Assembly (NCBI RefSeq): GCF_988243305.1
Contig: NZ_OZ547136.1
Strand: one strand, 5' to 3'
DNA length: 64,000 nucleotides
Below, piece after piece: positions 5,246 to 44,460 of the stretch (position 1 is its first letter; every line of letters starts with the position of its first letter). The notes under the pieces are model-generated. The model ran no database searches. It had not been told where the DNA came from and saw only the letters and a program-made list of their open reading frames with translations. The translations under genes were made by a program, and so were the position numbers.

Positions 5246-6054
5246 AGCAATTCCTTACAGGCGGCTTCACGGTGATGTAACAGGCTGGCAAGCCCGTTGA
5301 GTAACAGAGCATTAAACGTTTCGGGATCGGTCACGTTGCAGGCGTGTCCGCCATAGCGCATCACCATTTTCTGGCTATCGGGCAGGGCGGCATGAAGTTC
5401 ACTGGAACATGCTGATGGCACCAGCAGATCATCACTGGCGCAGATGATTTGCACCTGGCAGCGGATGCGATCCGCATGGTGACTAAAGTCAGCGCGTTTG
5501 AGGGCGTTAAGTCGACGCAGTAAATTATTTTTGCCCTGAAAATGCGCCAGTGCCAGCGCGTCTTCTGCCTCCAGGCGAGGTGCGCGGGCCGCTATCCAGT
5601 CGGCGGGATAGAGGAACAACGGCTGCGCTTCCACCCATGCCTGCGCGCCGCCGCTATGTAGTAACTGCTCGCGAACCTGAAAACAGCGGCGCGTATGGGC
5701 GTTTATTCGTAGCCAGCCGTTAACGCTGACCAGCACAGTTACCGACGCGGGATAATCCAGCGCCAGCTGCATTCCCACCAGCGCACCGAGCGCATGGCCG
5801 ACCACCGCGTAACGCTCAATCCCTACGGTTACCAGCGCCTGATGCAGTTCCGCTGCCATCTGGGTGATACTGTAATCTTCTGCCAGCGTGTCGGGATTAT
5901 TGCCGGTGCCGCGCTGGTCGTAACAGACTATCTGATACTCCTGCTCCAGCACCGCCAGTTGCGGTAACCAGTAACTGCCGCTACCGCCAAGACCCGAAAT
6001 CAACACCACTACGGGCGCATCAGCATAAGGGGGAGGTGAGAGTGAAAGTTTCAT
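5242..6054 (-). CDS. rutD: Alpha/beta hydrolase RutD (aminoacrylate hydrolase)
   Basis: Alpha/beta-hydrolase signature GHALGA in ORF 5242..6081; start trimmed to MKLSLSPP. Confidence 0.85.
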
Positions 6055-6061
6055 CGCGGCC

Positions 6062-6448
6062 TCACTTGGCGATATGCGCAATTGTGGCGATTTCCACCAG
6101 CGCGTCAGGTTTTACCAGTCCGCACTGAATGCAGAATCGCGCCGGTTTATCACCCGGAAAAAACTCGGCGTAGATTTCGTTAATCGCGGCGTAATTTTTC
6201 CAGTCGGTAATAAAGATGCTGTTGAAGGTCACGTCCGCCATCGTGCCACCCGCCGTCTCGATCACCTTGCGGATGGTTTCCAGAACGTGGCGGGTTTGCG
6301 CCTTTGGGTCATCGGCAAACAGCACGTTATTATGTTGATCAAAAGCCAGCGTACCGGAGACATACACCACGCCATCCGCCAGCGTGCCGGGAACGAAGGG
6401 AGCCAGCGGTGCGCTGCTGCCAGCGGGAATAATTACGGATTTTGGCAT
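6062..6448 (-). CDS. rutC: RidA-family aminoacrylate deaminase RutC
   Basis: 128-aa YjgF/RidA-like ORF in rut operon order. Confidence 0.85.
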
Positions 6449-6459
6449 CGTTAAACTCC

Positions 6460-8300
<1,841 letters not shown>

Positions 8301-19370: not shown

Positions 19371-20435
19371 ATGGTAACGTCCTGTACTGGACATGTTTTA
19401 GATAATCAGCGCGCCACCACTCGCGGAGATTTCTCCTCCGGTAGTCATCTCGTCACTTTGTATTTTCAACCTCATCCTTTCTTTTCATGTGTTACCGACG
19501 CCGTAAACGGTGCGCGTAGCCGTTTTTCGGCATTTTATCCAAAAGCAAACTATGGCTTACAAGGAAGCCAACCCTCTGATGTTCGTGCGCATAATCGCGC
19601 TGCCAACGGCGCGTGTGATGAATACAAACAACTCAAGGTGCTCTCCATGGGAAGACAAAAAGCAGTGATCAAAGCTCGTCGCGAGGCAAAACGTGTGCTG
19701 AGACGGGATTCGCGCAGCCATAAGCAGCGTGAAGAAGAATCGGTCACCTCGCTTGTGCAGATGAGCGGCGTAGAAGCCATTGGTATGGCCCGCGACAGTC
19801 GCGATACCTCGCCCATCCTCGCGCGAAATGAAGCGCAATTGCACTATCTGAAGGCTATTGAGAGTAAGCAGCTGATATTCGCCACGGGCGAAGCCGGGTG
19901 CGGAAAAACCTGGATCAGCGCAGCAAAAGCGGCAGAGGCCCTGATACATAAGGATGTCGACAGGATTATCGTCACCCGTCCAGTTCTGCAAGCCGATGAA
20001 GATCTTGGCTTCTTACCTGGAGATATCGCAGAAAAGTTTGCTCCCTATTTTCGTCCGGTCTACGACGTGCTGGTCCGGCGCTTAGGGGCTTCCTTTATGC
20101 AGTACTGCCTGCGACCGGAAATAGGGAAGGTGGAAATTGCGCCGTTCGCCTATATGCGTGGACGTACCTTTGAAAATGCAGTCGTCATTCTTGACGAGGC
20201 GCAGAATGTGACTGCCGCGCAAATGAAAATGTTTTTAACCCGCCTCGGGGAGAACGTGACGGTTATCGTCAACGGTGATATCACGCAATGCGATTTGCCT
20301 CGCGGCGTGCGCTCCGGATTAAGTGACGCGCTGGAACGTTTCGAAGAAGATGAAATGGTCGGGATCGTCCGATTCGGTAAAGAGGATTGCGTACGTTCGG
20401 CACTTTGCCAACGTACGCTACATGCATACAGTTAA
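19371..20435 (+). CDS. phoH: PhoH, phosphate-starvation-inducible ATPase
   Basis: 354-aa ORF with Walker A GEAGCGKT. Confidence 0.85.
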   Translation: MVTSCTGHVLDNQRATTRGDFSSGSHLVTLYFQPHPFFSCVTDAVNGARSRFSAFYPKANYGLQGSQPSDVRAHNRAANGACDEYKQLKVLSMGRQKAVIKARREAKRVLRRDSRSHKQREEESVTSLVQMSGVEAIGMARDSRDTSPILARNEAQLHYLKAIESKQLIFATGEAGCGKTWISAAKAAEALIHKDVDRIIVTRPVLQADEDLGFLPGDIAEKFAPYFRPVYDVLVRRLGASFMQYCLRPEIGKVEIAPFAYMRGRTFENAVVILDEAQNVTAAQMKMFLTRLGENVTVIVNGDITQCDLPRGVRSGLSDALERFEEDEMVGIVRFGKEDCVRSALCQRTLHAYS

Positions 20436-20453
20436 GTGTATTATCGGCGCAGA

Positions 20454-20482
20454 GCCCGGGCGAACCGGGCTTTGTTTTATTT
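20454..20482 (+). terminator. Putative rho-independent terminator of phoH
   Basis: gcccggg-cgaa-cccgggc hairpin followed by tttgttttattt. Confidence 0.55.
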
Positions 20483-20997
20483 CATTAACAGCAAAGACTT
20501 TCACTTCAGGTTAACGTTCTGGGGGGCGACTTTGAGCGTGTTGATAAGCTGAAATGAATTCTGGTTTAGATACTTTTACCAGGCATTTTTCGTCATAGCA
20601 CGCGACCAATGTAATGCCGCCAGCGCGGAGAGTTTTTTGCCTATCTTTTTCCAGCCATTCAACCTGTACAGGAGGTCTGGTGCCAATTTTGCGTATGAGG
20701 TTTAATCAACAATGGGCCAAAATTTGACTGACTGATTAACACCGAATATATTCTCCTGATTTTATTTTTTAGGGATAATATTAAAAATATAAGGTTAATC
20801 TTAATTAAATTTTTGGCTAATATTGTGTGTTGTTATTTTTTGTGGACGGCAAGCCGCAATGGCAAAATAGGTATGGTTGTAATAATCAAAACATGATACT
20901 AACTATATATAGATCGTTGAATTGTTGGCATGTAACTCGCTACAGCGAGTAGCGTTAGTAATGAAATATAATCAACATGGATAGGTGAAGATTAATT

Positions 20998-21684
20998 ATG
21001 AGCTTTATGGTTTTTGTAACTTGTTTGACAATTGCATTTGTCGCCGGTTTTGCTGTTGCCAGAAAATTGACACTCCGAAAAGTTGCCTCATCGGTAATCA
21101 TCACTAGATCGCAACCAGTCCCTTCCTCTGCAACTTCCCCTGCTGCTAAGGCGTCGACAAGGAGCTATACACCGCAGAAAACCTATCGTGACTCTCGTTG
21201 GCAAGAACGAGATGAGTTGTTCCAGGGAATGGTTGCCGAAGGTATTTTATTGGAAGGAAAAGAGTGGTTAATTACGCGTTGTGAAAAAATTTATTTTGAT
21301 AATCTGGAGAAATGGTTTGGACATTCTTGTCATATCCATTGCCAGGTCTCTCTGGGGCGCTTGATCAACTTTCCAGAACAACCCGAGTTTAGCGAAGAAG
21401 AAAGAAAGCGTTTCTTTGCAATTTATAATGGAATGGCAATGGATTATGTTCTGGTTTCAAAGAAGAACAATAAAATAGTCTGTGTTATTGAGCTGGATGA
21501 GCCGAGTCATGAAAGGGCAGATCGCATTATTCGTGACCGTTGGTTGAATACGATTATGACTATTGCACGGGTGCCTTTTGTACGAGCTTCTGTCACTAAA
21601 TTGGATGAAATCCCTCCGGTCTGGGATACCCGTGACAAAATTCGCCCATTAGCCGCGGCGACAAAGGGTGAACCGTTGCATTAA
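20998..21684 (+). CDS. Membrane-anchored DUF2726-like protein
   Basis: 228-aa ORF with N-terminal TM helix and a C-terminal region that I read as DUF2726-like (NFPEQPEF ... VIELDEPSHE); AT-rich promoter region upstream. Confidence 0.55.
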   Translation: MSFMVFVTCLTIAFVAGFAVARKLTLRKVASSVIITRSQPVPSSATSPAAKASTRSYTPQKTYRDSRWQERDELFQGMVAEGILLEGKEWLITRCEKIYFDNLEKWFGHSCHIHCQVSLGRLINFPEQPEFSEEERKRFFAIYNGMAMDYVLVSKKNNKIVCVIELDEPSHERADRIIRDRWLNTIMTIARVPFVRASVTKLDEIPPVWDTRDKIRPLAAATKGEPLH

Positions 21685-21691
21685 CTAAGTA

Positions 21692-21969
21692 CCCCGGTCA
21701 GGGCTTCTCATCTCCCCCGGTGTGTGCAATATACGAAAAAAAAGCCCGTACCTTCGTACGAGCTCTTCTTTAAAGATGGCGGTGAGGGGGGATTGACTCG
21801 CTTCGCTCGCCCTGCGGGCAGCCCGCTCACTGCGTTCACGGTCTGTCCAACTGGCTGTCGCCAGTTGTCGAACCCCGGTCGGGGCTTCTCATCCCCCTGT
21901 GTGTGCAATATACGAAAAAAAAGCCCGTACCTTCGTACGAGCTCTTCTTTAAAGATGGCGGTGAGGGGG
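21692..21969. repeat. Two ~99-bp near-identical direct repeats separated by ~81 bp
   Basis: Copies at ~21692–21790 and ~21872–21969; on the minus strand each carries a stem-loop followed by T8. Confidence 0.6.
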
Positions 21970-22129: not shown

Positions 22130-23332
22130 ATGGCAGTATTGACGGATACGAAAGCAAGACATATCAAACCTGATGACAAACCATTGCCCCATGGGGGAAT
22201 TACCGGACTGACCCTTCATCCTTCTTCAGTAAAGGGGCGGGGGAAATGGGTTTTTCGTTATGTAAGTCCGGTGACACAAAAAAGACGTAATGCTGGATTG
22301 GGAACTTACCCAGAGGTCAGTATTGCTGAAGCTGCACGTACTGCCCGGATAATGCGAGAGCAACTTGCTGCAGGTGATGATCCTCTGGAGATTAAAAAGG
22401 CTGAATCTGAGAAAGTCGCTATCCCAACATTTGCCGATGCAGCCAGGCGTGTACATGCAGAACTGTCTCCTGGATGGGAAAATCCAAAGCATGTAAGGCA
22501 GTGGTTATCGACGCTTGAGAATTACGCGTTTCCTCAACTGGGAGCAAAAACGCTGGATTCGATTACGGCTGCGGACGTGGCAGAAACACTGCGTCCAGTC
22601 TGGTTAACCTTATCAGAAACGGCAAGCCGGGTTAAACAGCGCATTCATGTTGTTATGCAGTGGGGATGGGCGCACGGTTTTTGTGTAGCAAATCCTGTTG
22701 ATGTGGTTGACCATTTGCTTCCTCAGCAGACAAGAGGACGTGATGAACACCAACCCGCAATGCCCTGGAGGCAGTTACCGCTTTTTGTGGCGACCAGTGT
22801 GTATACCGATGAACCTTATAATGTTACCCGCGCACTGTTATTAATGGTGATACTTACAGCAACTCGCTCGGGCGAAGCCAGGGGAATGCGCTGGGCTGAA
22901 ATTGATTTTCATAAGCGGGTATGGACTATACCTGCAGAAAGAATGAAAGCTAGGCTACAGCATCGTGTTCCTTTATCCCGGCAGGCTATTTACATTCTGG
23001 AAAATATACGTGGCCTGCATGATGAACTGGTGTTCCCTTCACCCAGAAAGCAGCAGATCCTTTCCGATATGGTGTTGACAAGTTTTCTGCGTAAAAAGAA
23101 AGCCGTCAGTGACATTCCGGGGCGAGTTGCCACGGCACATGGTTTTCGCTCAACATTCAGGGACTGGTGTAGCGAACAGGGGTATTCGCGGGATCTGGCG
23201 GAAAGGGCGCTCGCTCATACGCTGAAAAATAAGGTTGAGGCGGCATATCATCGTACTGATCTACTGGAGCAGCGTGTACCGATGATGCAGGCATGGGCGG
23301 ATTATGTGATGTCTCAAATTGTGAATAAATAA
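22130..23332 (+). CDS. P4-type tyrosine integrase
   Basis: 400-aa ORF with arm-binding-type N-terminus and C-terminal catalytic region (HGFRSTF ... LAH ... Y) as in P4/CP4-57-type integrases. Confidence 0.85.
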   Translation: MAVLTDTKARHIKPDDKPLPHGGITGLTLHPSSVKGRGKWVFRYVSPVTQKRRNAGLGTYPEVSIAEAARTARIMREQLAAGDDPLEIKKAESEKVAIPTFADAARRVHAELSPGWENPKHVRQWLSTLENYAFPQLGAKTLDSITAADVAETLRPVWLTLSETASRVKQRIHVVMQWGWAHGFCVANPVDVVDHLLPQQTRGRDEHQPAMPWRQLPLFVATSVYTDEPYNVTRALLLMVILTATRSGEARGMRWAEIDFHKRVWTIPAERMKARLQHRVPLSRQAIYILENIRGLHDELVFPSPRKQQILSDMVLTSFLRKKKAVSDIPGRVATAHGFRSTFRDWCSEQGYSRDLAERALAHTLKNKVEAAYHRTDLLEQRVPMMQAWADYVMSQIVNK

Positions 23333-23518: not shown

Positions 23519-25336
23519 TCACTCCTGCTGAGACTGAATTATTCCTAGTGCGTCATAAATCAGTCTTCTGCGTAGTTTATTGTTTTTATCTGCACCATAT
23601 AACATAAATATATTTTCAACTTTTTCTTCAGGTGTTCTGAGATAATGGATAAGAAAGGTTATCATTCCAACACAATGGAATAAAGTGAATCCATCAAACA
23701 GGCTTATCAGGTTTCCTTTTTTTTCCCGTGTTGTAAGTATTTTTTCGCGGGTAAGAATATTTGCCAGTTCATGGGGGGCTGATATGTTTCTGCTGTCTAT
23801 AATGTCATTTATTTTACCAAGGGCTATATCAACTTCCTGTAATAGGTTATTTATCATAGCTGAGTGAATGTTATTGGTTTCATGTTCCTGACAGTTTATG
23901 AACTTATAAATCATTGAGTTATACAGAAATATTACTCTTCCTAATAAATATGTGTTTGTGTCATTTTGAAGACAGGACTCTGGGTATTCGTGATCCAGTG
24001 AAATAAGGTTAATGGACTCGCCCTGATAAGTCATAAAATAATTGATGTCATTTAATAATGCTCGGATATTTACATGATTTTTACTGAATTTTATTTTAAA
24101 TGCTATCTTTAGTATAGCAAACGCGGCAATGATAAATCCAAAAGGTAATTTCTCATAGTTCAGTTTATTGATGGTGCGATGAACACTTTCAGTCTTTCCT
24201 GAAGTAAGTTGTCTCAAACAGTTAACAAATTCTGTATAGCCATTTAAGACATAATGGCATGAAGAATCTTTTAAAGAGTTTTCTATGTTTTGTAATGTGA
24301 CGCCGTTGTTCAATGTATAAATGTAACCGCCAAAGACAATGTTTTCAATCTCAACGACACAATTTATTGTTTTTTGTTCAGGATAAAGATAAATATCAGA
24401 AATACTATAGTCTCGTATTGCGTCAATGGCATCCCACGATAATGCACTGTCAATTTTCAGTGTATAAAATGGTGAGTTCTCATTAGGAAAGTAATATATG
24501 TATTTGTTCAGTATATTCATTACATCTATTGGGTTGGTTAAATATAATAACTGGCATTCATATTCTGAAACTTCTCTTTCGCTTATCAGCATTTTATATA
24601 AAGTTGCCAGGGTGCTTGTTAATGAAGTTCGTCTTTCGAAAGCCAGTAATATAGTGAGATAATAACATGCAACCTGAACTTTATCTAAGTCAGAAATTAT
24701 TTTTTCCTTGTCTTCATTACTTAAATAAAGCAGATGTTTACAGGTTTCTTTGCATGTGTTGATAGTTGCGATAAGTTTTGTTTTTCCTGGTGTACTGTTT
24801 TTGCGAATATTACGAATGAATTCATATACGCCATCAAAGATATCTTTGAAATGCGCATTCGCTGGCGTGTATCCGGATAAACATAACTTAACGTAATTTC
24901 GCAGATATGTCCTTGCAGCATGATATATATCATCCTCATTATCCGGTATCTGAGTGAGAAAAGAATGAATATGATAGTAAAATGCCATCTCATTATCCGG
25001 GCGATATGTGTTCCTGATGTCGAGTGCGAGAATCATTGGTACAATGTCATTAAAATATTTTTGTTTTATTATTTGATGTGTTTTGTCTGTAAAAACAGAA
25101 TAGTGCATTAGCTTAACATAGAGATCTTCATATCTCCTAAATATAACTTTTCGTTGTTCTTTACTCAATACTTGTTCTTTATCAATAATGTTTATTAATT
25201 CATCAAACATGTCGCCCAGTGAATGTTGATGTGAGGAAAAATTTTTAATATTTCGGATGTCACGGCTATTCTGGTTTTTAGCCAGAACACCAAAACATGA
25301 AAAGACATCATACATTATAGTGATAAAATTATACAT
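23519..25336 (-). CDS. Hypothetical 605-aa orphan protein, strongly AT-rich
   Basis: Long uninterrupted ORF with no motif I recognise, directly downstream of the integrase. Confidence 0.6.
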   Translation of the reverse strand: MYNFITIMYDVFSCFGVLAKNQNSRDIRNIKNFSSHQHSLGDMFDELINIIDKEQVLSKEQRKVIFRRYEDLYVKLMHYSVFTDKTHQIIKQKYFNDIVPMILALDIRNTYRPDNEMAFYYHIHSFLTQIPDNEDDIYHAARTYLRNYVKLCLSGYTPANAHFKDIFDGVYEFIRNIRKNSTPGKTKLIATINTCKETCKHLLYLSNEDKEKIISDLDKVQVACYYLTILLAFERRTSLTSTLATLYKMLISEREVSEYECQLLYLTNPIDVMNILNKYIYYFPNENSPFYTLKIDSALSWDAIDAIRDYSISDIYLYPEQKTINCVVEIENIVFGGYIYTLNNGVTLQNIENSLKDSSCHYVLNGYTEFVNCLRQLTSGKTESVHRTINKLNYEKLPFGFIIAAFAILKIAFKIKFSKNHVNIRALLNDINYFMTYQGESINLISLDHEYPESCLQNDTNTYLLGRVIFLYNSMIYKFINCQEHETNNIHSAMINNLLQEVDIALGKINDIIDSRNISAPHELANILTREKILTTREKKGNLISLFDGFTLFHCVGMITFLIHYLRTPEEKVENIFMLYGADKNNKLRRRLIYDALGIIQSQQE

Positions 25337-30902: not shown

Positions 30903-33900
30903 TTGGAAGTAGAAATGTGGGATGGTGGCTTACAAGAACAGGAAGTATTGGCTATCGAGAAAATAAAAGCTGCTTTTTCAGTCAACGTATCTAAGCCTGA
31001 CAAGCCTTTCCGTAGCGGTTCAATTAGTGAGCAGCTAAAAAGCTATGGTTTTATCGGCAATGAAATGTTCCCTTGGAAAGGTTATGCAGGTTTTCGATTT
31101 GTTGAGGCAAAAAAAGAGGGGGAATTCGATTTAGTTATTGTAACACACTGCAACGTGATCATTGTTGAACTGAAAGACTGGAACCATCAGCCTGTAACCG
31201 CACGCGGAGATACTTGGTTTAAAGGCGATAAGAACATGGGGCGCTCGCCAGTAAGCGTGACTCGTAGCAAAAAATTCATGCTGGACAAAAAACTCAAGCG
31301 TCTGGTAGACCGTTTTACGAACAAAGGCTATATCCCGATTGTTCATTTTTTTGTTGTGATGACCGGCAATGCAGATTTCAGCGCGCTGCCGGAGGAACAA
31401 CGGCGCCATACGATCTCGTTAAAAGATTTCCTGAAGTTTGCCGATCGCGGGAGCTTCAATAACTATTTCAAACCGCACCCAGCTACCAAGGTTCTTAACA
31501 AGGATTTCCATCTTTTCGATGATTTGTTCCTAGGGCCTCAGACGGCACCAAAAGCCTTGAGAGTTAATGGCTATGAAGCTAATGATATGATTTTCGAACA
31601 TCCTAAAAAGGTGTATCGAGAATATCTGGCAAAATCTGAGATATCAACGAACAGCGAAGCGCTACTCAGAGTATGGAATTTTAGAAATATAACGGGAACG
31701 AAAGCGAATACCCCGGAAGGACGAGCTCAGATTGTTTCACGTGAGCGCGAAGTGTTACAGCACATCAATCACCAGAATCGTGACCTGTATAACCACTGTC
31801 TCAGGTCTTTGACGAGTTTTCAGAAAGACGAGGTGACGGCCGAGTATAGCGAAGTCTACGAAGTTCCGCCGGGTCATGTCCGGTTTAATGAGTTTATCGG
31901 AAAATATGGTAAGAACTTTTCTGATATGGACCGCTTGAATGTGGTGAAACTGCTCATTGCAAAGTTTAGTGATCTCCATGAGATGAAAATTGCGCACAGG
32001 GATGTCGCCGATCACAGTCTGTGGATTTCACCTTCAAAAGAAGTTGCTCTTTCGAACTTTATTTCGGCTTACCACCAGCCAGCCGGAACGGTTGGCGATT
32101 ACCGTAAGCTTTTATCCGTAGGTGCAGTCCACGTAAAAGACATGCTTGATAAGGGCGAGCTTACGCCTTTTCAGCAAGATGTTCATACTCTGGGCCTTGT
32201 CGCCTGGCACTTATTTAGCGGTATGCGCATGTCGCCAAAGAGTCTGGAGAAAGTACAGGACAACATGCTAAACAGCCAGCACTGGTATTCATCTGTATTA
32301 CGGGATGCCGTTGCCGCAAAATTCACTTCTGCAACAGAATTCTTTGATGCCCTGAAACAAGCCGAACCTGCTGGCAAGGATATTCCAACATTTGATGATA
32401 CTGAGCTTGACCCTTACCGACATGCTATCAATCACGCTCGTCAATACCCGGAAGACGATGGCTTTCAGTTTCAGGTCGAAACAGTCGACAAAGAAGTCTA
32501 TATCTCGAAAGGAAGGCTCGTGAAGGCTTGGCTGAATGTTGGGGGACAGGGATACGATCCGTCAATTAATTTCCAGGTTCTGAAGTTTTTAAAGCAGGTT
32601 GAGCGGCTTTCTTCAGTTAAAACAACGTATCTACCTCAAATTCGTGAATTCGGTATCGCATCAAAATCATCAAGCCTATATATGGTCACGGATCAGGTAC
32701 AGGGAGAAACCTGGGATAAAATAGCGGTCCCCGATGATGAAAAAATCGACCTCATTGGTAAGTTTGTCGCCGCCGTTGAGCACTTACATGGTCTGGGTGT
32801 TTCTCACGGGGACATCCACCCTGGCAATGTGATATTTGAGACACAGAGCCGTTTGCTTTTTCTCATCGATATCCCCGATTTTTCACCGTCCGGTGACGAA
32901 CCTAAAAATCACAGTTACAGCCCTGAATACATTGATAATTGTACTTCTTTTGAACGTGACAACTATGCAGTGATGAAGATGTCCTGCGAGTTGCTAGGCA
33001 TGTCATGGGGGCTGGAATCAGACATTTATCCGACAATCGCGAATGCTATCCGAGCAGAGCTGGAAGATCCGGTTTTTGGGTTTAAGGATTTAGGCCGCTT
33101 TAAAAAAGCGATAGATAGTAATGACCTGGTGCCAGAACAAGACCTGATAGAGATTACTGCAGGAAATGCCGATGAAATAATCTCTATTCTGCCTGATAAC
33201 GGGCATCTGTATGTCAAAGTTAAGTCAAATCCTAAAGCGCCAGCTGAAGTAAATGTGACTTTCTCTGGGATTGGTGGCAGTTTTACTGCGGTGTTCAACA
33301 AAGATCAGAAGACGCTGGTTCATGGCTTCAGGCCACGGGCTCGCGTCACAATTCGTAAGCAAGATATTGATGAAAGCCAGTTCGAAATTGATACTGGCAT
33401 CAAGATTATTCCCGGCAGTCCGCAGGATCTGTCGGCGTTGACAGTATTGCTTAATGAAGAAGAATCTTTTGCGCGGGCAATCGAGTTGATTGCCGCAACT
33501 GAAGATGTTCAGGTACAAGAGCCACTTACGCTTCAGCTAAAAGATACCTTTGCAAGGCTTGATAAGCAGACGCTTGAACCTTCTTTAAGAGAAGTGCTGG
33601 AAATCCCAACAGTGAAACTGTGGCGCGCCATTCTGGATACTGAAACAGAATCTTATCCAAACATTGAAATCAGCGGTGAAGTGGTCCCGGTTGCAGATGC
33701 TCATGGAGAGCTTCTTCTCCCTTACTCTGCTGATGTTGATCCACTCGGTGCTTTCAGAAGTAGTGATGAAGTCGAAGCCTTACAGGTCGATCAGGAAGGT
33801 GTTGAGCGATTTATTGGTGAAGTGTCACTTAAGAAGTCAGAGCTCAAAGAGATTCGTCTTGTCAAAGTTAGTTCAGCAGCCTTCAAGCTGAAGGATTCTG

Positions 33901-35873
33901 ATATTGTCTTCTTCCGTACAAGGCCGACTCGTGCATCTTATCAGAAACGTAAACGCGCACTGGAACGTCTCCTAGATCGAGAAAGTGTGCTGCCTGACTT
34001 AATTGACTTGTTCGATCCATCCTGCAAACAGGCGGCTCAAAATTATGGTATCACTCTCAGCGATACCGATTTTGCCAGATACGACCGTGAAGATCAGCAC
34101 GGAAACAAGATCAGTCTGAATGAACAGCAAAGAAAGGCGTTTAACAAACTGGTCAATAATGGCCCTCTCTCCCTGCTTCAGGGGCCACCGGGGACCGGTA
34201 AAACCGAGTTCATCGCGGCCTTTGTTCACTACCTGATCGAGAAACAGAATACCAAACGCATTTTACTGGTCAGCCAGTCACACGAGGCTGTGAATACAGC
34301 GGCCGAGCGTATCAGAAAGCATTGTTCCCGGCTTGGTACAGAGTTGGACGTTGTCAGGTTCAGCAACCGAGAGGGAGCCGTTTCCCCTGGCTTAAAAGAT
34401 GTGTACTCACACGCAATCACAACAGAGAAGCGCGAACTCTTCAATGCTGAAATTAAGTACCGTGTTGAAGCATTGAGTGAAGCTATTGGTCTGGAGCCGG
34501 GATTTATTTCGGGTGTTGTTCTTGCAGAGCTCAATTTGTTCAGACAAATCGATCACCTTGAGAAATTGCTCTATCAGGTTAACAATTTAACGGATTCAAA
34601 TGAGAGCAATGAACTGAAAGATATTGCAGTCGAACTCGATTTTTCCATCCGCTCTAAGCTGAGTCAGGAGTATGGGATTAACTTGGACAATGGCGTGAAG
34701 GTCTCAGCAGCAAAAGACATTCTGATTTCCAAGCTATGTACAGAGTATGGTGTCAGACCTGATGAGGCAAGACGAGTAAAAGCATTAGCTAAAATATCCC
34801 GTGATATGCAGGATGCTATGTCGGGAGAGCGAGTGAACCTGGACGAGTTTTATTCGCGCTCCAGGCAGTTAGTGGCTGGCACATGCGTTGGTATTGGACA
34901 AGGGCACATTGGCATTCAGGAGAATATCTATGACTGGGTGATTATTGATGAGGCGGCGCGCTCGATTTCAAGTGAGCTGGCCATTGCAATGCAGTCAGCC
35001 CGGCGTGTCCTGTTGGTGGGTGACCACATGCAGCTTCCTCCATTGTACTCAGATGCCCACAAGGCGGCATTAGCGAGGAAGCTGGGTATCAATAACTCCC
35101 GCACTGAAATTGACGAGGTATTACGAAGTGACTTTGCCCGAGCCTTCAACTCTGCTTATGGTGCGCAGACGAGTGCAGCTTTGATGACCCAGTATCGTAT
35201 GGCTCCACCGATTGGTAATCTCGTATCGAAGACGTTTTATGACGGGAAGCTTCTGAATGGAGTACGGGCAATTCCGGATGTCTATCAGCAAGCTCCGGAA
35301 GCGTTACGTAGCGTTGTAACCTGGCTTGATACTGCTAATCAGGGCCACCGAGCACATCATCTTGAAGATCGCGGAACAAGCATTTACAACCGATGTGAAG
35401 CTGACGAGATTATTTCTGTTCTTAAACAGGTGTCAGAGAATGAAGAATTTGTCGCTAAGCTTTCAAAACTTGTTAGCAAAGATGAAGCCGCTATCGGCGT
35501 GATATGTATGTATGCCGAACAAAAGCGGTTACTCCGTCAGAAATTCAATCAGGAAATCTGGAGCGAGGGATTTAAGGACATTGTTAAAATTGACACTGTT
35601 GACAGTTATCAGGGAAAGGAAAATCGGATCATTATCCTGTCACTGACGCGTTCGGATAAGCAGCATAGCCCAGGTTTCTTACGCGTTCCAAACCGTATAA
35701 ATGTCGCGATGTCACGCGCAATGGATCGACTGTTGATTGTGGGTAATGCCGATATCTGGAAGGGAAACAATAAAGAATTGCCATTAGGCTACGTTGTAAG
35801 TTATATGGCTGAGCGAGGTCAGGAAGCTGGATACAGGTTCCTCTCTGCTCAGCAGGGAGGCAAAAAGAAATGA
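30903..35873 (+). CDS. Giant multidomain protein: NERD-like nuclease region, two protein-kinase-like regions, UPF1-like SF1 helicase (candidate defence effector)
   Basis: 1656-aa ORF; aggaga SD 6 nt before the TTG start (alternative ATG at 30915); FDLVIVTHCNVIIVELKDW; IAHRDVADHSLWI and VSHGDIHPGNVIF...LIDIPDF; helicase motifs GPPGTGKT, VIIDEAARS, LLVGDHMQLPP, VDSYQGKE, RINVAMSRA. Confidence 0.8.
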   Translation: MEVEMWDGGLQEQEVLAIEKIKAAFSVNVSKPDKPFRSGSISEQLKSYGFIGNEMFPWKGYAGFRFVEAKKEGEFDLVIVTHCNVIIVELKDWNHQPVTARGDTWFKGDKNMGRSPVSVTRSKKFMLDKKLKRLVDRFTNKGYIPIVHFFVVMTGNADFSALPEEQRRHTISLKDFLKFADRGSFNNYFKPHPATKVLNKDFHLFDDLFLGPQTAPKALRVNGYEANDMIFEHPKKVYREYLAKSEISTNSEALLRVWNFRNITGTKANTPEGRAQIVSREREVLQHINHQNRDLYNHCLRSLTSFQKDEVTAEYSEVYEVPPGHVRFNEFIGKYGKNFSDMDRLNVVKLLIAKFSDLHEMKIAHRDVADHSLWISPSKEVALSNFISAYHQPAGTVGDYRKLLSVGAVHVKDMLDKGELTPFQQDVHTLGLVAWHLFSGMRMSPKSLEKVQDNMLNSQHWYSSVLRDAVAAKFTSATEFFDALKQAEPAGKDIPTFDDTELDPYRHAINHARQYPEDDGFQFQVETVDKEVYISKGRLVKAWLNVGGQGYDPSINFQVLKFLKQVERLSSVKTTYLPQIREFGIASKSSSLYMVTDQVQGETWDKIAVPDDEKIDLIGKFVAAVEHLHGLGVSHGDIHPGNVIFETQSRLLFLIDIPDFSPSGDEPKNHSYSPEYIDNCTSFERDNYAVMKMSCELLGMSWGLESDIYPTIANAIRAELEDPVFGFKDLGRFKKAIDSNDLVPEQDLIEITAGNADEIISILPDNGHLYVKVKSNPKAPAEVNVTFSGIGGSFTAVFNKDQKTLVHGFRPRARVTIRKQDIDESQFEIDTGIKIIPGSPQDLSALTVLLNEEESFARAIELIAATEDVQVQEPLTLQLKDTFARLDKQTLEPSLREVLEIPTVKLWRAILDTETESYPNIEISGEVVPVADAHGELLLPYSADVDPLGAFRSSDEVEALQVDQEGVERFIGEVSLKKSELKEIRLVKVSSAAFKLKDSDIVFFRTRPTRASYQKRKRALERLLDRESVLPDLIDLFDPSCKQAAQNYGITLSDTDFARYDREDQHGNKISLNEQQRKAFNKLVNNGPLSLLQGPPGTGKTEFIAAFVHYLIEKQNTKRILLVSQSHEAVNTAAERIRKHCSRLGTELDVVRFSNREGAVSPGLKDVYSHAITTEKRELFNAEIKYRVEALSEAIGLEPGFISGVVLAELNLFRQIDHLEKLLYQVNNLTDSNESNELKDIAVELDFSIRSKLSQEYGINLDNGVKVSAAKDILISKLCTEYGVRPDEARRVKALAKISRDMQDAMSGERVNLDEFYSRSRQLVAGTCVGIGQGHIGIQENIYDWVIIDEAARSISSELAIAMQSARRVLLVGDHMQLPPLYSDAHKAALARKLGINNSRTEIDEVLRSDFARAFNSAYGAQTSAALMTQYRMAPPIGNLVSKTFYDGKLLNGVRAIPDVYQQAPEALRSVVTWLDTANQGHRAHHLEDRGTSIYNRCEADEIISVLKQVSENEEFVAKLSKLVSKDEAAIGVICMYAEQKRLLRQKFNQEIWSEGFKDIVKIDTVDSYQGKENRIIILSLTRSDKQHSPGFLRVPNRINVAMSRAMDRLLIVGNADIWKGNNKELPLGYVVSYMAERGQEAGYRFLSAQQGGKKK

Positions 35874-37306
35874 TATCTGATAACAAAGTTACCTATCATG
35901 AGGTTGACTTCCTGCTGCCAGCACAGAGGTTTAACATTCAGTTTTCCTATGTTTCCCAGAAGGGGCTGCCATTTATCCGGGAGTTTGTGCTGAGACTTGT
36001 TCATGTAGCTTCGATGAGCAAAGCACAAATAGCAACCTATTTCGGCCTGACCCACCGTGAGACAGAGGAGGCGATTTCCGATCTTGTGCAGCGTGGCGAA
36101 TTGACGCTCTCCTCAGACGGCAGACTGGCCTTAACAGACAAATCAAATGGCTATTTTTCAGAGGTTGGCGAGATACCGCATCTTTCAACTATTCAGGACA
36201 GTGGCTGTACCTTATCCTTTGATTTAGCCACATTTAGTTGCTTCAGCAACCAGGCTTTTCAGGACCACTGGAGGGGAGGGGTAACATTAAAGGTTGATGA
36301 CAACAACATTTCTCAAAGTGAGAAACTGGTTGAGAAGCACTTTCAATACCAGTTTAATCAAATCCTGGATAAAGGTTACCTGTCTCACCTGCAGGTTCAG
36401 GTCGGAAAAGAACAACCTTCTATCTATACCGTTAATTCTGTTAATAAGCTGCGGCAAATACCACTCCGTTTAACAACGGAATTTAAAATGGATAGCGATG
36501 GTAAGGCTGTCGAGCGTGAAGACTATGAACAGTTAAATAGTTCGGAATGTGTTCATGAGTTAATGGCTGTTGAGATAGCCAGGTTATCACGGCATAACAA
36601 TACCATGAGTATTTTTAAGGCCATGCAATCCATTAACGATGACCTTACGCTTAAGCTGTTTGACTCTAAAACGAATCGACTTAATCCGTTGTTTATCAAA
36701 GATATGCAAGCACTGGAAGAATACTCGTCCTCAGGCAGAACGACTTTTTTAGGTCCGGTTTATTCTAAAAACAACTGGGAAAAGCTGCAGAAAGCTCTGG
36801 CACCAGCGCTCAATCAGCGTATCAGAGATAAAACTGATTATGGAGGTAGCCCGTTCATCTGGGTGGCACCATCAGATCCCTACTGGTCAAAAAGCATTCG
36901 ATTTATCTCAAGCCTGAGCAATTTTCTTAGCAAGTCGGCTACGAAGGATAAGCAGCTGTATAAACCGGTGCTGTACGTACCTGTCCGGGATGCAGCTGAT
37001 GCTCGGGTTGCCAGACAGTGGAAGTATGAACTTGGGCAATTCCATGAGTACGCTAAAGGACTAGTTGAGGGGCTGTTAGATGGTAATGTTGAGATCCTTC
37101 ATCTTGAGGATGAGTTATCTGCCGTTATCTATCATATTTCTCAACCCGAAATATTGCCTGTAACGATGCCACTGGGCTTTATCACAACGAACAAAGAAAC
37201 GGTTAAGATTATTGGTACTCTGGTTACTGAATATATCAAAGGCACCACTGGTTTTGATAAGTTTCATGACTGTGGCGCAATTTCGGCAATGATTAAGAAA
37301 GGTTGA
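35870..37306 (+). CDS. Hypothetical 478-aa partner protein with possible N-terminal winged-helix region
   Basis: Start overlaps the upstream stop (ATGA); no PLD HxK(x)4D motif seen. Confidence 0.7.
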
Positions 37307-38218: not shown

Positions 38219-38545
38219 ATGACTAAAAATACTCGTTTTTCCCCCGAAGTCCGTCAACGGGCAGTCCGTATGGTTCTGGAAAGTCAGAGCGAATATGACT
38301 CACAATGGGCGACAATTTGTTCCATTGCTCCAAAGATTGGCTGTACGCCGGAGACTCTGCGTGTCTGGGTTCGCCAGCATGAGCGGGATACCGGGGGCGG
38401 TGATGGAGGGCTCACCACCGCTGAACGTCAGCGTCTGAAAGAGCTGGAACGTGAAAATCGTGAACTGCGCCGCAGTAACGATATCCTTCGCCAGGCTTCC
38501 GCTTATTTTGCGAAGGCGGAGTTCGACCGCCTCTGGAAAAAATGA
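38219..38545 (+). CDS. IS3-family transposase OrfA (copy 1)
   Basis: 108-aa HTH/leucine-zipper OrfA ([19 protein letters not shown]...). Confidence 0.85.
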
Positions 38546-39432
38546 TGCCACTGCTGGATAAGCTGCGTGAGCAGTACGGGGTCGGACCGCTATGCAGCGA
38601 ACTGCATATTGCCCCGTCAACGTATTACCACTGTCAGCAACAGCGACATCATCCGGATAAACGCAGTGCCCGTGCGCAGCGCGATGACTGGCTGAAGAAA
38701 GAGATACAGCGCGTATACGATGAAAATCACAAGGTATACGGTGTGCGTAAAGTCTGGCGTCAGTTGTTACGGGAAGGTATCAGAGTGGCCAGATGCACTG
38801 TGGCACGTCTCATGGCGGTTATGGGACTTGCCGGTGTTCTCCGGGGTAAAAAGGTCCGTACGACCATCAGCCGGAAAGCCGTTGCCGCAGGCGACCGCGT
38901 AAACCGTCAGTTCGTGGCAGAACGACCTGACCAGCTGTGGGTGGCTGATTTTACTTACGTCAGCACATGGCGGGGCTTCGTCTATGTGGCGTTCATCATT
39001 GATGTGTTTGCCGGATACATCGTGGGGTGGCGGGTCTCATCGTCCATGGAAACGACATTCGTGCTGGATGCACTGGAGCAGGCGTTATGGGCCCGTCGAC
39101 CGTCCGGCACGGTCCATCACAGTGATAAAGGTTCTCAGTATGTATCGCTGGCCTACACACAGCGGCTTAAGGAAGCCGGATTACTGGCATCAACAGGAAG
39201 TACAGGCGACTCGTATGACAACGCGATGGCGGAGAGCATCAATGGTCTTTACAAAGCGGAGGTAATACACCGTAAGAGCTGGAAAAACCGTGCAGAAGTG
39301 GAACTGGCCACACTCACGTGGGTGGACTGGTATAACAATCGACGATTGCTGGAAAGGCTGGGCCATACTCCTCCGGCAGAAGCAGAAAAAGCTTATTATG
39401 CTTCCATCGGAAACGATGATCTGGCAGCCTGA
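38542..39432 (+). CDS. IS3-family transposase OrfB, DDE integrase core (copy 1)
   Basis: 296-aa ORF overlapping orfA, typical programmed-frameshift arrangement. Confidence 0.85.
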
Positions 39433-41001
39433 GTTCACAGATAAAACACTCTCCAGGAAACCCGGGGCGGTTCATACAGCTCCTGCAGCTGGGTGCCGGT
39501 CGCGAAGTAGCTCCAGACCTGATCGGCAAAGTCGCTGTCCGTTTGCACCTTCTCTAACCCGTAATAGGCATTCTCGGCGCTGACTATCCCGTGGTACATC
39601 AGCGAGTTCAGCGGGAACAGAGGGCCTTTACGGACAATGGAGCGGTACGTCTCGGCATCGCGGTAGGTCATCCACTGCTGCACCGGCGTACCGGAACCAT
39701 ACAGGTTGATGTCATCTCCCTGACGCCAGATAGAATCAGCGTAGAACAGCCAGGACGGGCTGGCGTCGGTGCCGGTGGTCAGGTTGATAAACAGATTCGG
39801 GGTTGCGCTGCGCATATTGTGCAGCAGGGCGATTGATGCATCGAAATCTGAGGCGAACGAGCTGCCTTTGATATGCGAACTGGCGTTACCCATCCCGTCG
39901 AGTTTAAACGAGGTGATGTGCTCGTTTTTGATAAGCTTGATGATCCGCTCATTGAAGTTTTTAAAGTAGTTCGCTCCCGACAGCGCCAGTTTGCCGTCCA
40001 CGGTTTCGAACCCATACTCTTTTGCATGCGAAACGCGAACGTCGCGCGGTTTGTTGTAGCCACCCCACGGTGAAAGCCATAGCCCAACGGAGCTGTGCAG
40101 GCTGTCGGCTTTCTCCCGTACTTTGCTAAAACCGTTTCTGAATGCCGTGCCAAATAGCCAGCGTCCGGTCAGATCGTCCCAGCCATCATCCAGCAGGAAG
40201 GCGTCCAGCGCCACGCCGCGGCCCGTAATGAACTCCTTGTTCCATTCGTCCATACGCCCCAGCACATCCTGTTCAGTGTAGGGAGTGAAAAAGCCGATAT
40301 CCATCCAGCTGTTGTAGTGCAGATAAGGCTTGTATGGGCGTGGACGTACGTCATTAATAAACTGGTTCACGCTGCGGCGCAGCTGGCTGGTTTCCGGGAA
40401 AGTGCCGAACCAGGTAGTAAAGCTGACCGGCGCCTCTGGCTGAATCGGCGTTTTCAGCTCTACGTTGAGATTGGTGGTGGCTTCATAGGCGTAGGTATTC
40501 ACGATCGGTTTATCCGGCAGGATAAAGAACGAGTCCGCAACGATCGGAGAGCTATTGATTGCGCCGTCTACGTAAGGGGCCTGAGACTGTTTTTGGGTCG
40601 GGAAGAAGGTGATTTTAGCGACGTCGCGCGGCTGCCCCACGGCGGCAATGGTGTAGCCGATGTTGGCGTATTTTCCCTTCACCAGGTTCAGCTTCACCGT
40701 GACGTTAAAATCCGGGTGCGTAAAGTCGATGACAATCGCGTTATCCTGCTTTTCGACGTGCTTGATTTTGAAATCCGCGGTGTGGATTTTACTCTCATCC
40801 GGCAGCGTCAGAAAGAACAACTCCTGCGGCGTGAGCGGATGGTTAGCCTTGTTGTCCTTCACCACGACCGTTGAGTTTGTATCATCAAACAAGAGGGCAA
40901 TATTGTCGTTATTGAGCGCGTAGTTTGCTGCCGCTGCACCATGAGAAACGCAGAGAGCCAGCAGTGAGAGAGTGAGCACTTTCTTCATCGGGGTAAGATC
41001 C

Positions 41002-42180
41002 TTATTTGTCATTTTTCAGCATTCGGTTAATGGACTGCTCCAGCCAGTAGCGCTGGGTGCCAAAATTAATCCGCAGGTAGTTTTCGCCGTTTTGTACATA
41101 GTGGCTGCCGTCTTCTATGACCACGCCTGCCTGCCGTGCGAAATGTTGGGTTAGCTGCGTTGCGCTACGCTCATCCGCGCTTACGTCTATCCACGCCAGA
41201 TACGACGATTCCGGGTTCATCATCTTCCACGCCGGGAAGTGGGTCTGGAGGGCATCCGCCAGATACCGGGCGTTGCCTTGCAGATAACCGTTCAGCGCGT
41301 CGAGCCAGGGCAGACCGTGTTGATAGGCCAGAATGATTCCCCATACCCCGAACAAATTGGGCGAGGTAATGGAGTTCTTCTCGAGCTGCTGGCGGAAGCG
41401 CTGGCGCAGCGAGTCGTCTGGAATCATGGAGTAGGAGGTTTTCAGCCCGCCCAAATTGAACGCTTTGTTGGGCGATGTGAGCACGATCAGGTTGTCCTGG
41501 GCGGCACAGCCAGAGGTGAGACAACTGGCGAATTTGCCATCCAGAATGTGTTCAGCGTGAACCTCATCGACCACCAGAATCGTGCCGTAGCGTTGACAGA
41601 GATCGGACACCTGGCGTATTTCTTTCTCGCGCCAGATCCTGCCGGACGGGTTATGTGGCGAGCAGAAGAACCACAGCGTTGGACGGTGGGTTTTGAGCTG
41701 TTCTTCTATCAGATTAAAATCAAGCTGATAGCGGTTTTCCTCCACGCGCAGCGGGTTAGCCAGTACCTGCACGCCCTGGCGCTGTGCCGCCATCGCAAAA
41801 GGATCGTAGACCGGCGTGTTCATCATCACGCTGTCACCCGGTTTGCAGAATGCCTGAACCGTGTAGTGCAGCGTGGATACGGTGCCGTAGGTCAACGTGA
41901 TCCACGACTTTTCCACCTCAACCTGATGACGTTTGCGCTGGAAGGCAATGACCGCGTCGTAGAATTCGTCAAAGCACCAGGTATAACCAAAGGTGCCGTG
42001 CTCCACGATGCGCCGGAAACCGTCAATCACCGCAGGTGGTGAGGTGAAATCCATATCGGCTATCCATAGGGGGATAAAGGACTCCGGGACGTCACCGAAA
42101 CGCGAGCAAACAAAGGTATGGTCCCATTTACGGCACTTATCATTTTGACGCTCAATGATTTTGTCGAAATCAAACATCAC
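41002..42180 (-). CDS. MalY/PatB-like PLP-dependent C-S lyase
   Basis: 392-aa ORF with aminotransferase class I/II signature (SPHNPSG ... SPNKAFN). Confidence 0.7.
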   Translation of the reverse strand: MMFDFDKIIERQNDKCRKWDHTFVCSRFGDVPESFIPLWIADMDFTSPPAVIDGFRRIVEHGTFGYTWCFDEFYDAVIAFQRKRHQVEVEKSWITLTYGTVSTLHYTVQAFCKPGDSVMMNTPVYDPFAMAAQRQGVQVLANPLRVEENRYQLDFNLIEEQLKTHRPTLWFFCSPHNPSGRIWREKEIRQVSDLCQRYGTILVVDEVHAEHILDGKFASCLTSGCAAQDNLIVLTSPNKAFNLGGLKTSYSMIPDDSLRQRFRQQLEKNSITSPNLFGVWGIILAYQHGLPWLDALNGYLQGNARYLADALQTHFPAWKMMNPESSYLAWIDVSADERSATQLTQHFARQAGVVIEDGSHYVQNGENYLRINFGTQRYWLEQSINRMLKNDK

Positions 42181-42188
42181 TCCTCCTG

Positions 42189-43796: not shown

Positions 43797-43873
43797 TACC
43801 CGGTTTAAGGACGCGCCTTCATATTTGTGGGACTTATAATTATTTTGAAATATTGAGGTAATACGCTGTTGGA

Positions 43874-44278
43874 TCAGGCCTCCGCCGGTAGCCGTAATCG
43901 ATTTGCCGAGCCGCAGACGGCGATTTTGCTTCTGACCACCTCTTTCATGGCGTCCATGCCAACCCGCATGTAAAAGCGCGGATCGTTGCTCTGCTGATTT
44001 TCAGCAAACCAAGCTTTGATAGCGTCAGAGAAGGCGATCTTCAACTCGGTTGCAACGTTGACTTTGCAGACGCCTGGCCCAATGGTGCGACGAACATACT
44101 CATCCGGCACATCGCTCGCCCCATGCAGCACAAAGCGGGCAAAACAAACGGCATAAATTCCATTTGTTTTGCCCGCTTTGTGCTGCCTCACCATTTCTGT
44201 CAGATGTTTCACTTTCCTCTCCAGTTCAGATTGCTGCGATATTAATCTTTCGTTTTGTTTCAGTTGATACTGCGTCAT
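43874..44278 (-). pseudogene. Fragment resembling the C-terminus of a class II tagatose/fructose-bisphosphate aldolase
   Basis: C-terminal portion ([11 protein letters not shown] ... [13 protein letters not shown] ...) is aldolase-like; N-terminal portion unrelated. Confidence 0.45.
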
Positions 44279-44460
44279 GGTGAGATAAAAATAAAACGAA
44301 AGATAATAGTTTTCTGATCTGATTCACAAAAGAAACATAATGAAAGTCAGTGAAACGAGAGTAGCTTGCGCCAATGGGCAAGGTGGGCTTGCATTTGCTT
44401 AATAGAAAGGCGTTAATAGGCAAAACGAAATGAAACGAAAGTTTTACGAAAGGACTTACT

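Follow-up and report, generated by a model that had tools for sequence, protein, structure and literature searches.

Does the open reading frame (ORF) that lies between phoH and a P4-type integrase on an E. coli chromosome belong to the island that the integrase bounds, and what might its product do? Both questions are raised by the window, the 64,000-nucleotide stretch of DNA that was analysed, in which the gene order is efeO, efeB, phoH (ending at 20435), a DUF2726 ORF, repeats, and the P4-type integrase. An earlier note on this DNA had placed the ORF between phoH and the island repeats, in an AT-rich context just outside the integrase, and had proposed that it may belong to the accessory region. 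The position and the base composition are as described there. The ORF is located between phoH and repeats at 21691-21969, 446 bp separate it from the integrase downstream, and the GC content is 0.364 at 20500-20999 and 0.418 at 21000-21499, compared with 0.51-0.55 in the flanking efe and phoH genes. The assignment to the accessory region did not survive, because the gene is on the chromosomal side of the left end of the island and has at least 405 island-free carriers.

A chromosomal gene between phoH and serX

The features of the locus are listed below by position in the window.

20449 to 20475, plus strand: intrinsic terminator of phoH, an 11-pair stem followed by a T-run
20479 to 20997, no strand assigned: AT-rich upstream part of the 1.2-kb DUF2726-type segment (GC 0.364; K-12-type matches absent)
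20998 to 21684, plus strand: DUF2726 gene, 228 codons and a stop (ORF list; PF10881 match with an E-value of 9.6e-19; RefSeq CDS elsewhere)
21691 to 21969, minus strand: pair of chromosomal RtT-type repeats located 3' of serX (K-12, O121, and MINF_1A aligned)
22130 to 23332, plus strand: P4-type tyrosine integrase, encoded by the first gene in the serX island and given as context only (Pfam Arm-DNA-bind_3, Phage_int_M, and Phage_integrase)

In the ORF list, the DUF2726 ORF is intact, begins with an ATG, and encodes 228 residues. A Shine-Dalgarno sequence, AGGTGA, is positioned at 20983-20988, 9 nt 5' of the ATG, and a candidate -10 box, TATAAT, at 20967-20972, which may serve as part of a promoter, is kept in the alignment with Salmonella. 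The same 687-nt CDS is labelled 'DUF2726 domain-containing protein' by RefSeq in other E. coli genomes. The omega of the DUF2726 domain is 0.05 in the comparison with the Salmonella ortholog (dN 0.11, dS about 2) and 0.29 between E. coli alleles, which indicates an old gene under purifying selection. The DUF2726 ORF is a real gene rather than a chance reading frame. The phoH terminator, which is common to K-12-type genomes, sets it apart from the phoH transcription unit. The interval between phoH and the repeats contains no further ORF of at least 40 residues with coding support, and RefSeq annotates none there. A possible remnant of a minus-strand gene at 20511-20700 was dropped, since it has no Pfam match and no relatives beyond the phoH-serX locus. 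Neither an immunity gene nor a partner gene was found next to the DUF2726 gene of the window, and no gene for a cognate DNA methyltransferase, which a type II restriction-modification system calls for, adjoins it.

In K-12, the interval between phoH and the RtT units is occupied by pgaDCBA, dgcT, IS3, a ymdE fragment, and ycdU. K-12-type genomes match the window region only at 20436-20478 and 21691-21969. Because the match ends at 20478 and resumes at 21691, the sequence 20479-21690 constitutes an alternative AT-rich segment with a length of 1.2 kb. Among 5426 complete E. coli genomes, 1049 contain the DUF2726 gene, in a single copy and with an identity of 95-99.6%. The junction after phoH was typed in the 5418 genomes that matched the query at all, which yielded 5422 junctions; the phoH-pgaD junction occurs in 4377 genomes and the window-type DUF2726 junction in 1045. 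The gene-level tallies are concordant, with 4382 genomes containing pgaC and 1049 containing the DUF2726 gene. In E. coli, the phoH-serX slot thus has two states, DUF2726 (about 19%) or pgaDCBA-dgcT-ycdU (about 81%), and the DUF2726 gene is strain-variable as the minority alternative to pga-dgcT-ycdU. The DUF2726-type junction implies that the E. coli strains that have it are without pga at the usual site and carry the DUF2726 gene there instead. Strains of E. coli that lack pga and have the order phoH-serX-ghrA were reported previously, with the DUF2726 gene unmentioned (PMC5635171).

The DUF2726 state of the slot extends beyond E. coli. E. albertii has the order phoH-DUF2726-ghrA and a protein that is 87% identical, and Salmonella enterica has putA-putP-phoH-DUF2726-IS-ghrA-ycdX...csgG, with a protein that is 71-74% identical. 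The synteny comparison that the earlier note had proposed therefore speaks against island cargo, as both Salmonella and E. albertii keep phoH-DUF2726-(serX)-ghrA. In Salmonella strains with SPI-19, a T6SS island that is integrated at serX (PMC2907695), the island follows the DUF2726 gene. Nearby T6SS genes were considered as an explanation of the Salmonella ortholog and rejected, since Salmonella without SPI-19 retains phoH-DUF2726-IS-ghrA; the adjacency arose because SPI-19 used the serX hot spot too. STM1127 is not the Salmonella ortholog, as it is a MurR-type repressor of the ManNAc cluster. In the published view, pga was lost from Salmonella (PMC5464674). A two-state slot, the DUF2726 state of which is found in Salmonella and E. 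albertii, bears on this simple loss view.

The left end of the island can be placed within the repeats. Each RtT-type unit ends in a fragment of the 3' end of serX, TGGCGGTGAGGGG, located by pattern search at 21777-21789 and 21956-21968. The repeats score 43.5 bits against the Rfam RtT model, slightly below the gathering score of 45; RefSeq carries 'RtT sRNA' features at the corresponding repeats in other genomes, and the same units are found directly 3' of serX in K-12 and other strains. The second serX copy stops after 13 nt, and unrelated island sequence begins at approximately 21970. No intact tRNA was found within the window, and this, together with the truncated 13-nt copy, indicates that the island was inserted in serX. 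The second TGGCGGTGAGGGG fragment is the left attachment remnant of the island. The DUF2726 gene ends at 21684, outside the island, and the two chromosomal RtT units intervene.

That the serX island bounded by the integrase carries the gene as cargo, an idea for which the gene's AT-richness and its distance of merely 446 bp from the integrase could be cited, has next to no chance of being correct and is refuted, since the gene is located beyond the attachment remnant, is present in an uninterrupted DUF2726-(RtT)-serX-ghrA arrangement in no fewer than 405 genomes of E. coli (for example MINF_1A and O121 RM8352) as well as in island-free Salmonella and E. albertii, and is missing from many genomes that have the integrase (for example UTI89, O157:H7, and ST131). 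The DUF2726-att-integrase junction of the window occurs in only 148 genomes. The gene belongs to the chromosome. The earlier note had named two observations that together would speak against its reading, a gene beside phoH in genomes without the island and the lack of any DUF2726 match; the first was found, and the second was not, as the protein matches the DUF2726 model.

Predicted anchor, tether, and nuclease-fold domain

The DUF2726 protein can be divided into three parts, the boundaries of which were derived from sequence and from a predicted structure.

21004 to 21078, plus strand: predicted N-terminal membrane-anchor helix, residues 3-27, N-out/C-in (hydropathy; Lys/Arg pattern; AlphaFold2 pLDDT above 90)
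21079 to 21207, plus strand: predicted disordered, basic, Ser/Pro/Thr-rich tether, residues 28-70 (AlphaFold2 pLDDT 54-76, no secondary structure)
21208 to 21663, plus strand: predicted globular Vsr-like PD-(D/E)XK nuclease-fold domain, residues 71-222 (Pfam match at residues 90-205)

The N-terminal transmembrane helix and the C-terminal DUF2726-like region, both read from the sequence in the earlier note, were recovered. The segment of 19 residues at positions 3-21 has a mean Kyte-Doolittle hydropathy of 2.43, and AlphaFold2 predicts a helix at residues 3-27. No lysine or arginine precedes the segment, and four are present in the next 15 residues. The same asymmetry is seen in 17 of 17 homologs from the clade, in which a conserved cluster of 4-8 Lys/Arg residues directly follows the segment. 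According to the positive-inside rule, the anchor would cross the inner membrane once, and we infer that the nuclease-fold domain faces the cytoplasm. The tether varies among homologs in both length and sequence, and its dN is higher than that of the domain. The N-terminal region is kept across the Enterobacterales clade homologs. Many database entries for orthologs give a length of 145-151 residues; a short isoform lacking the membrane helix was considered and rejected, because the complete helix-encoding ORF continues uninterrupted 5' of the annotated start and the short entries are start-codon miscalls.

The Pfam search identified DUF2726 (PF10881) at 67.8 bits, the cut-off being 24.7, with an E-value of 9.6e-19. 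The match covers residues 90-205 and model positions 3-116 of 126, and DUF2726 is the sole Pfam domain of the protein at E-values up to 1. The clade additionally contains a conserved SRWExRDELFxGM helix before the Pfam-defined core, besides the long disordered tether. The AlphaFold2 model, built with 104 diverse homologs whose identity to the query ranges from 17% to 93%, has a mean pLDDT of 87.3, which exceeds 90 in the domain at residues 71-222. In the model, the order of secondary structure elements is alpha-beta-beta-beta-alpha-beta, corresponding to the restriction-endonuclease, or PD-(D/E)XK, fold. The best Foldseek matches are restriction enzymes, and the matches among viral structures are DUF2726, DUF559, and Vsr proteins. 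This agrees with published classifications, in which DUF2726 was placed with Vsr and DUF559 (PMC3424549) and was described as a DNase with an REase fold that occurs in fusions with AbiJ N-terminal domains (PMC3710099).

The putative active site comprises Glu96, Asp149, Glu165, Asp167, Glu168 (Asp in relatives), His171, Arg176, Arg179, and Asp180. In the set of 104 sequences, Glu96, Glu165, His171, Arg179, and Asp180 are invariant, and Asp149, Asp167, Asp168, and Arg176 are 93-99% conserved. Judged by this conservation, the set of acidic, histidine, and arginine residues has the pattern of an active site. All of the family-invariant residues are present in the window protein. The window allele has two private changes, D168E and Y110S; position 168 is an aspartate in 102 of the 104 relatives, and D168E, which is conservative, is the sole deviation from the putative active-site set. 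The private D168E change is a caveat to reading the protein of this allele as a nuclease.

The relation to Vsr is seen at the level of the modelled fold only. The hhalign comparison of the family profile from the 104 sequences with E. coli Vsr, the query sequence of which was confirmed to be identical to 1cw0_A, gave no alignment (hhalign probability 0.2%), and searches of PDB sequences, run with both the protein and the 104-sequence profile, returned nothing meaningful. The equivalence of family residues to Asp51 and His69 of Vsr is therefore putative. DUF559 matches are sub-threshold and confined to some relatives. The NCBIfam scan of the DUF2726 protein gave no match, the PHROGs scan matched solely families of unknown function, and the PADLOC-DB v2 scan gave no defence model at E-values up to 1. 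The absence of a PADLOC match and of a partner gene counts against a defence role. The searchable literature contains no functional study, biochemical or genetic, of any DUF2726 protein.

Relatives and possible functions

An exhaustive HMMER search returned 709 cluster representatives at E-values up to 1e-3, and the topology of the best 150 of them was surveyed. Among the best 150 of 709, 128 were newly returned sequences (P0032-P0178) of at least 140 residues; 99 of these 128 remote representatives have an N-terminal hydrophobic segment, which in 96 of the 99 is followed by an excess of Lys/Arg residues. These proportions suggest that a short anchor with the N-terminus outside and a cytoplasmic DUF2726 domain, both as predicted, are the norm of the family. 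Some relatives of the same layout end in a topoisomerase-type C4 zinc ribbon with scores above the Pfam cut-off (P0097, 43.3 bits; P0158, 38.8 bits). Zinc ribbons of this type are cytoplasmic and bind DNA, and the fusion thus supports both a cytoplasmic location of the DUF2726 domain and DNA as its ligand.

In the Enterobacterales clade, the members of which are 37-93% identical, the gene recurs in three settings: after phoH, in a T6SS core operon, and in the backbone of ICEs. The first setting occurs in Escherichia and Salmonella. The second has the gene order TssM-TssA-DUF2726-TssF-TssG-TssJ-VgrG, with 18-50 nt between genes, and is found across Enterobacter, Citrobacter, Pantoea, Klebsiella, Salmonella, and Rahnella; the DUF2726 paralogs are 37-53% identical, the T6SS proteins are 59-84% identical, and the order is still conserved in Rahnella, the TssA of which is just 59% identical. 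The location in a T6SS cluster applies to the paralogs P0017 and P0018 and to the loci L027, L030, and L034, and not to the window gene, the neighbours of which are phoH and serX remnants. In the third setting, five ICEs from E. coli, Dickeya, Pectobacterium, and metagenomes have the DUF2726 gene fixed between the TraG_N and Integrase_1 genes. One close paralog is hence a conserved, undescribed gene of a T6SS core operon, and another has a fixed place in the backbone of an ICE family. Other copies are located upstream of vgrG in Erwinia, after hrpA, in Vibrio inovirus prophages, and on one conjugative plasmid. A tblastn search of plasmids and phages found few homologs, all of them distant. The fixed position in ICEs, the Vibrio inovirus prophages, and the conjugative plasmid are in favour of a link to DNA traffic. 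No constant partner gene was found around the remote homologs; their neighbours are heterogeneous and mostly of housekeeping type, and they do not form defence islands. The unrelated neighbours suggest that the DUF2726 protein works on its own and was repeatedly picked up by mobile elements and secretion loci.

We propose that the intact gene encodes a 228-residue inner-membrane protein, in which an anchor at residues 3-27 and a tether of about 45 residues would hold the DUF2726 domain, residues 71-222, on a flexible leash at the cytoplasmic side. The domain may be a metal-dependent DNA endonuclease. With the tether, the endonuclease would be kept off the nucleoid and limited to DNA that is at the inner membrane or is crossing it, and the targets may be phage, conjugative, or filamentous-phage DNA, for which the protein would form a spatial barrier as SNIPE does. 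A membrane-tethered DNA endonuclease that faces the cytoplasm is the reading that we favour, at somewhat less than even confidence; the specific role as a barrier to entering DNA is considerably more doubtful. The presence of the closest paralogs in T6SS core operons is left unexplained by a DNA-entry barrier. In Salmonella and Escherichia, the gene has been inherited vertically and stably at a single site under strong purifying selection, which is atypical of fast-turnover defence genes and counts against a defence role.

The alternative that survives best is that DUF2726 proteins are accessories of envelope-spanning machines, namely T6SS and conjugative type IV secretion, which they would assist or regulate from an anchored position on the cytoplasmic side of the inner membrane, the E. 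coli and Salmonella copy being a stand-alone derivative or a relic. It would account for the paralogs between tssA and tssF in diverged T6SS lineages, the paralog directly 5' of vgrG in Erwinia, and the fixed place after TraG_N in the five ICEs. We nevertheless consider it unlikely, because the genes of the window, E. albertii, and Salmonella have no obligate T6SS or conjugation neighbours, the neighbours of the remote homologs are unrelated, and the adjacency in Salmonella reflects the serX hot spot (PMC2907695), with SPI-19-free strains retaining phoH-DUF2726-IS-ghrA. Furthermore, the orphan copies are under strong purifying selection, which argues for an autonomous function. We know of no accessory protein of a T6SS or of type IV secretion that has the fold of DUF2726.

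It is distinctly improbable that the domain acts on RNA, as a tethered RNA endonuclease, or merely binds RNA or DNA. The nearest relatives classified by sequence, Vsr, DUF559, I-Bth0305I, and the MTES_1575 REase, are DNA enzymes, the zinc ribbons fused to family members are of the DNA-binding topoisomerase type, and the invariant acidic and histidine residues are typical of metal-dependent phosphodiesterases.

The protein could also be a latent toxin that is freed by cleavage of the tether upon envelope damage or infection, resulting in abortive infection, or a secreted T6SS effector. The long, protease-accessible tether, the fusion of DUF2726 domains to AbiJ N-terminal domains elsewhere, and the paralogs that adjoin vgrG or lie in T6SS clusters are compatible with such functions, which are very unlikely all the same: no immunity or antitoxin gene is present beside any copy examined, the T6SS-embedded copies are bordered by core genes, Pfam detects DUF2726 alone and no PAAR, MIX, FIX, or other effector marker, and toxins are not usually conserved vertically in the manner of core genes, as the gene is in Salmonella.

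A periplasmic domain, reached through the N-in/C-out orientation or a cleaved signal peptide and degrading extracellular or periplasmic DNA, has only a slight chance of being correct, since the A-V-A at the end of the hydrophobic segment, which resembles a signal-peptidase site, is not kept as an A-x-A motif among homologs, the protein has no positively charged n-region, 4-8 Lys/Arg residues follow the segment in all members of the clade, and the Cys4 zinc-ribbon fusions of relatives imply the cytoplasm; one remote homolog adjoins an Endonuclease I gene.

Comparison with known systems

The window gene is an ordinary, RefSeq-annotated member of an uncharacterised Pfam family in the PD-(D/E)XK clan. 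Its product shares with DUF2726 (PF10881) the model match, the invariant E/D/E-x-D/H/R/R-D residues, and the commonest architecture, an N-terminal helix followed by DUF2726. There is no categorical difference from the family; the clade adds the SRWExRDELFxGM helix and the tether, and the allele adds Y110S and D168E. Of the Vsr, DUF559, and I-Bth0305I group, Vsr has no match to the window protein at the sequence level in hhalign. Vsr and DUF559 proteins are soluble, whereas the window protein is predicted to be membrane-anchored. The vsr gene is linked to that of a cytosine methyltransferase (vsr-dcm), whereas the window gene has no such neighbour.

The ICE-borne DUF2726 paralogs, encoded after TraG_N, resemble entry-exclusion proteins in position. 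TraS of F and Eex of SXT/R391 are small inner-membrane exclusion proteins that are encoded just after a traG-family gene and are not enzymes. In contrast, DUF2726 has an enzyme-like invariant set; homology is not expected, and the window gene is located outside conjugative elements.

The pga alternation, the SNIPE-like layout, and the T6SS and ICE paralogs have no description in the searchable literature. SNIPE, an E. coli nuclease that acts against phages and is bound to the membrane, is the only characterised system in which an anchor is combined with a cytoplasmic nuclease. Its N-out single-pass anchor prevents self-cleavage, and it cuts phage DNA during injection; in SNIPE, which is far larger than the window protein, the nuclease is of the GIY-YIG type and a DUF4041 domain binds DNA (bioRxiv 10.1101/2025.11.03.685801). 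The predicted layout of the window protein, an N-out anchor and a cytoplasmic nuclease fold, is the same. However, the window protein contains neither DUF4041 nor GIY-YIG, and its predicted PD-(D/E)XK fold is unrelated. The likeness to SNIPE is therefore a functional analogy, and not membership or homology.

It is conceivable, though we would not expect it, that proteins composed of a helix and DUF2726 constitute a large unrecognised class of tethered Vsr-like endonucleases that cut nucleic acid at the inner membrane. Such a class would be a second, independent instance of SNIPE-type spatial discrimination between self and non-self; it would have been drawn repeatedly into ICEs, inoviruses, and one T6SS subtype, while Salmonella and the fifth of E. 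coli that lacks pga would have retained it on the chromosome. The SNIPE-like layout of the family gives a concrete hypothesis for K-12, which is naturally without the gene.

Allele and annotation of the DUF2726 gene

The membrane-anchored DUF2726 protein encoded after phoH carries two substitutions that are private to the allele of the window strain.

21325-21327, codon 110, Y110S
21499-21501, codon 168, D168E

Position 168 is an aspartate in 102 of the 104 family members, and the activity of the protein might therefore be altered in the window strain.

Many orthologs from Salmonella, Enterobacter, Pantoea, and Klebsiella are annotated in GenBank and RefSeq with a length of 145-151 residues, starting at an internal methionine, and thus lack the conserved membrane helix and the tether. 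In the loci with these entries, the complete DUF2726 open reading frame continues unbroken 5' of the annotated start.

Loci L019, L020, and L021, 6001-6456 (local coordinates), shortened DUF2726 entries
Cluster of the homologous protein P0018, shortened DUF2726 entries

DNA flanking the gene and cargo of the serX island

Two features of the minus strand are located at the 3' end of phoH and upstream of the DUF2726 gene.

20237-20430, minus strand, Rfam Ysr251 match in antisense orientation to the phoH 3' end, 192.8 bits
20511-20744, minus strand, frame open over about 60 codons (…VQVEWLEKDRQKTLRAGGITLVACYDEKCLVKVSKPEFISAYQHAQSRPPER*), no start codon

Ysr251 is a Yersinia antisense sRNA family in Rfam, and the match may simply reflect the conserved coding sequence of phoH. 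The open frame is part of a stretch of approximately 250 nucleotides upstream of the DUF2726 gene that is present in E. coli and absent from Salmonella. The frame has no Pfam match, its relatives are confined to the phoH-DUF2726 locus, and it may be a gene remnant.

The serX island, outside which the DUF2726 gene lies, contains additional genes.

23519-25336, minus strand, 605-residue open reading frame directly after the integrase gene, GC content 31-34%
30903-37306, plus strand, gene for a 1656-residue protein and a trailing 478-residue open reading frame
38542-45285, IS3-family transposase (rve), aminotransferase, PTS EIIC/EIIB permease, and DeoR regulator

In the 1656-residue protein, Pfam recognises a NERD (nuclease-related) domain together with a protein kinase domain and an SF1 helicase (AAA_11/AAA_12). 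The 478-residue open reading frame directly 3' of its gene, which it overlaps by four nucleotides, has no Pfam match, and together the two look like a candidate two-gene defence system. The 605-residue open reading frame has no Pfam match either, and is labelled "hypothetical protein" in SW4848, the closest genome. The genes at 38542-45285 are a metabolic cargo module.

DUF2726 paralogs in secretion clusters and mobile elements

A conserved membrane-anchored DUF2726 paralog is flanked by tssA and tssF of one subtype of type VI secretion system (T6SS) in Enterobacter, Citrobacter, Pantoea, Klebsiella, Salmonella, and Rahnella; this T6SS-embedded paralog is not mentioned in the literature searched. 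Another paralog occupies a fixed position in the backbone of integrative conjugative elements (ICEs), in the order DUF1525-TraU-...-TraG_N-(139-residue reverse open reading frame)-(open reading frame of about 185 residues)-DUF2726-Integrase_1.

L013, 6001-6660, T6SS paralog
L016, 7001-7657, T6SS paralog
L027, L030, and L034, 8001-86xx, T6SS paralog
L008, L011, L015, L018, and L032, gene at about 6001-7636, ICE paralog
L022, 5794-6435, DUF2726 gene of Vibrio inovirus prophage PQ189329

Two further loci appear to be contaminants or mislabelled records in public assemblies: L024, a 1450-bp contig in a Collinsella metagenome-assembled genome, matches the E. coli DUF2726 gene at 98% identity, and L031, a contig labelled "Chryseobacterium sp. 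18061", contains an Enterobacterales T6SS that shares 99% identity with the one in Citrobacter sp. 18056.

In filamentous Vibrio prophages, the DUF2726 gene directly follows the morphogenesis genes (G1P, G4P) and precedes a putative RNA methyltransferase gene, which is an accessory position like that of a moron gene.
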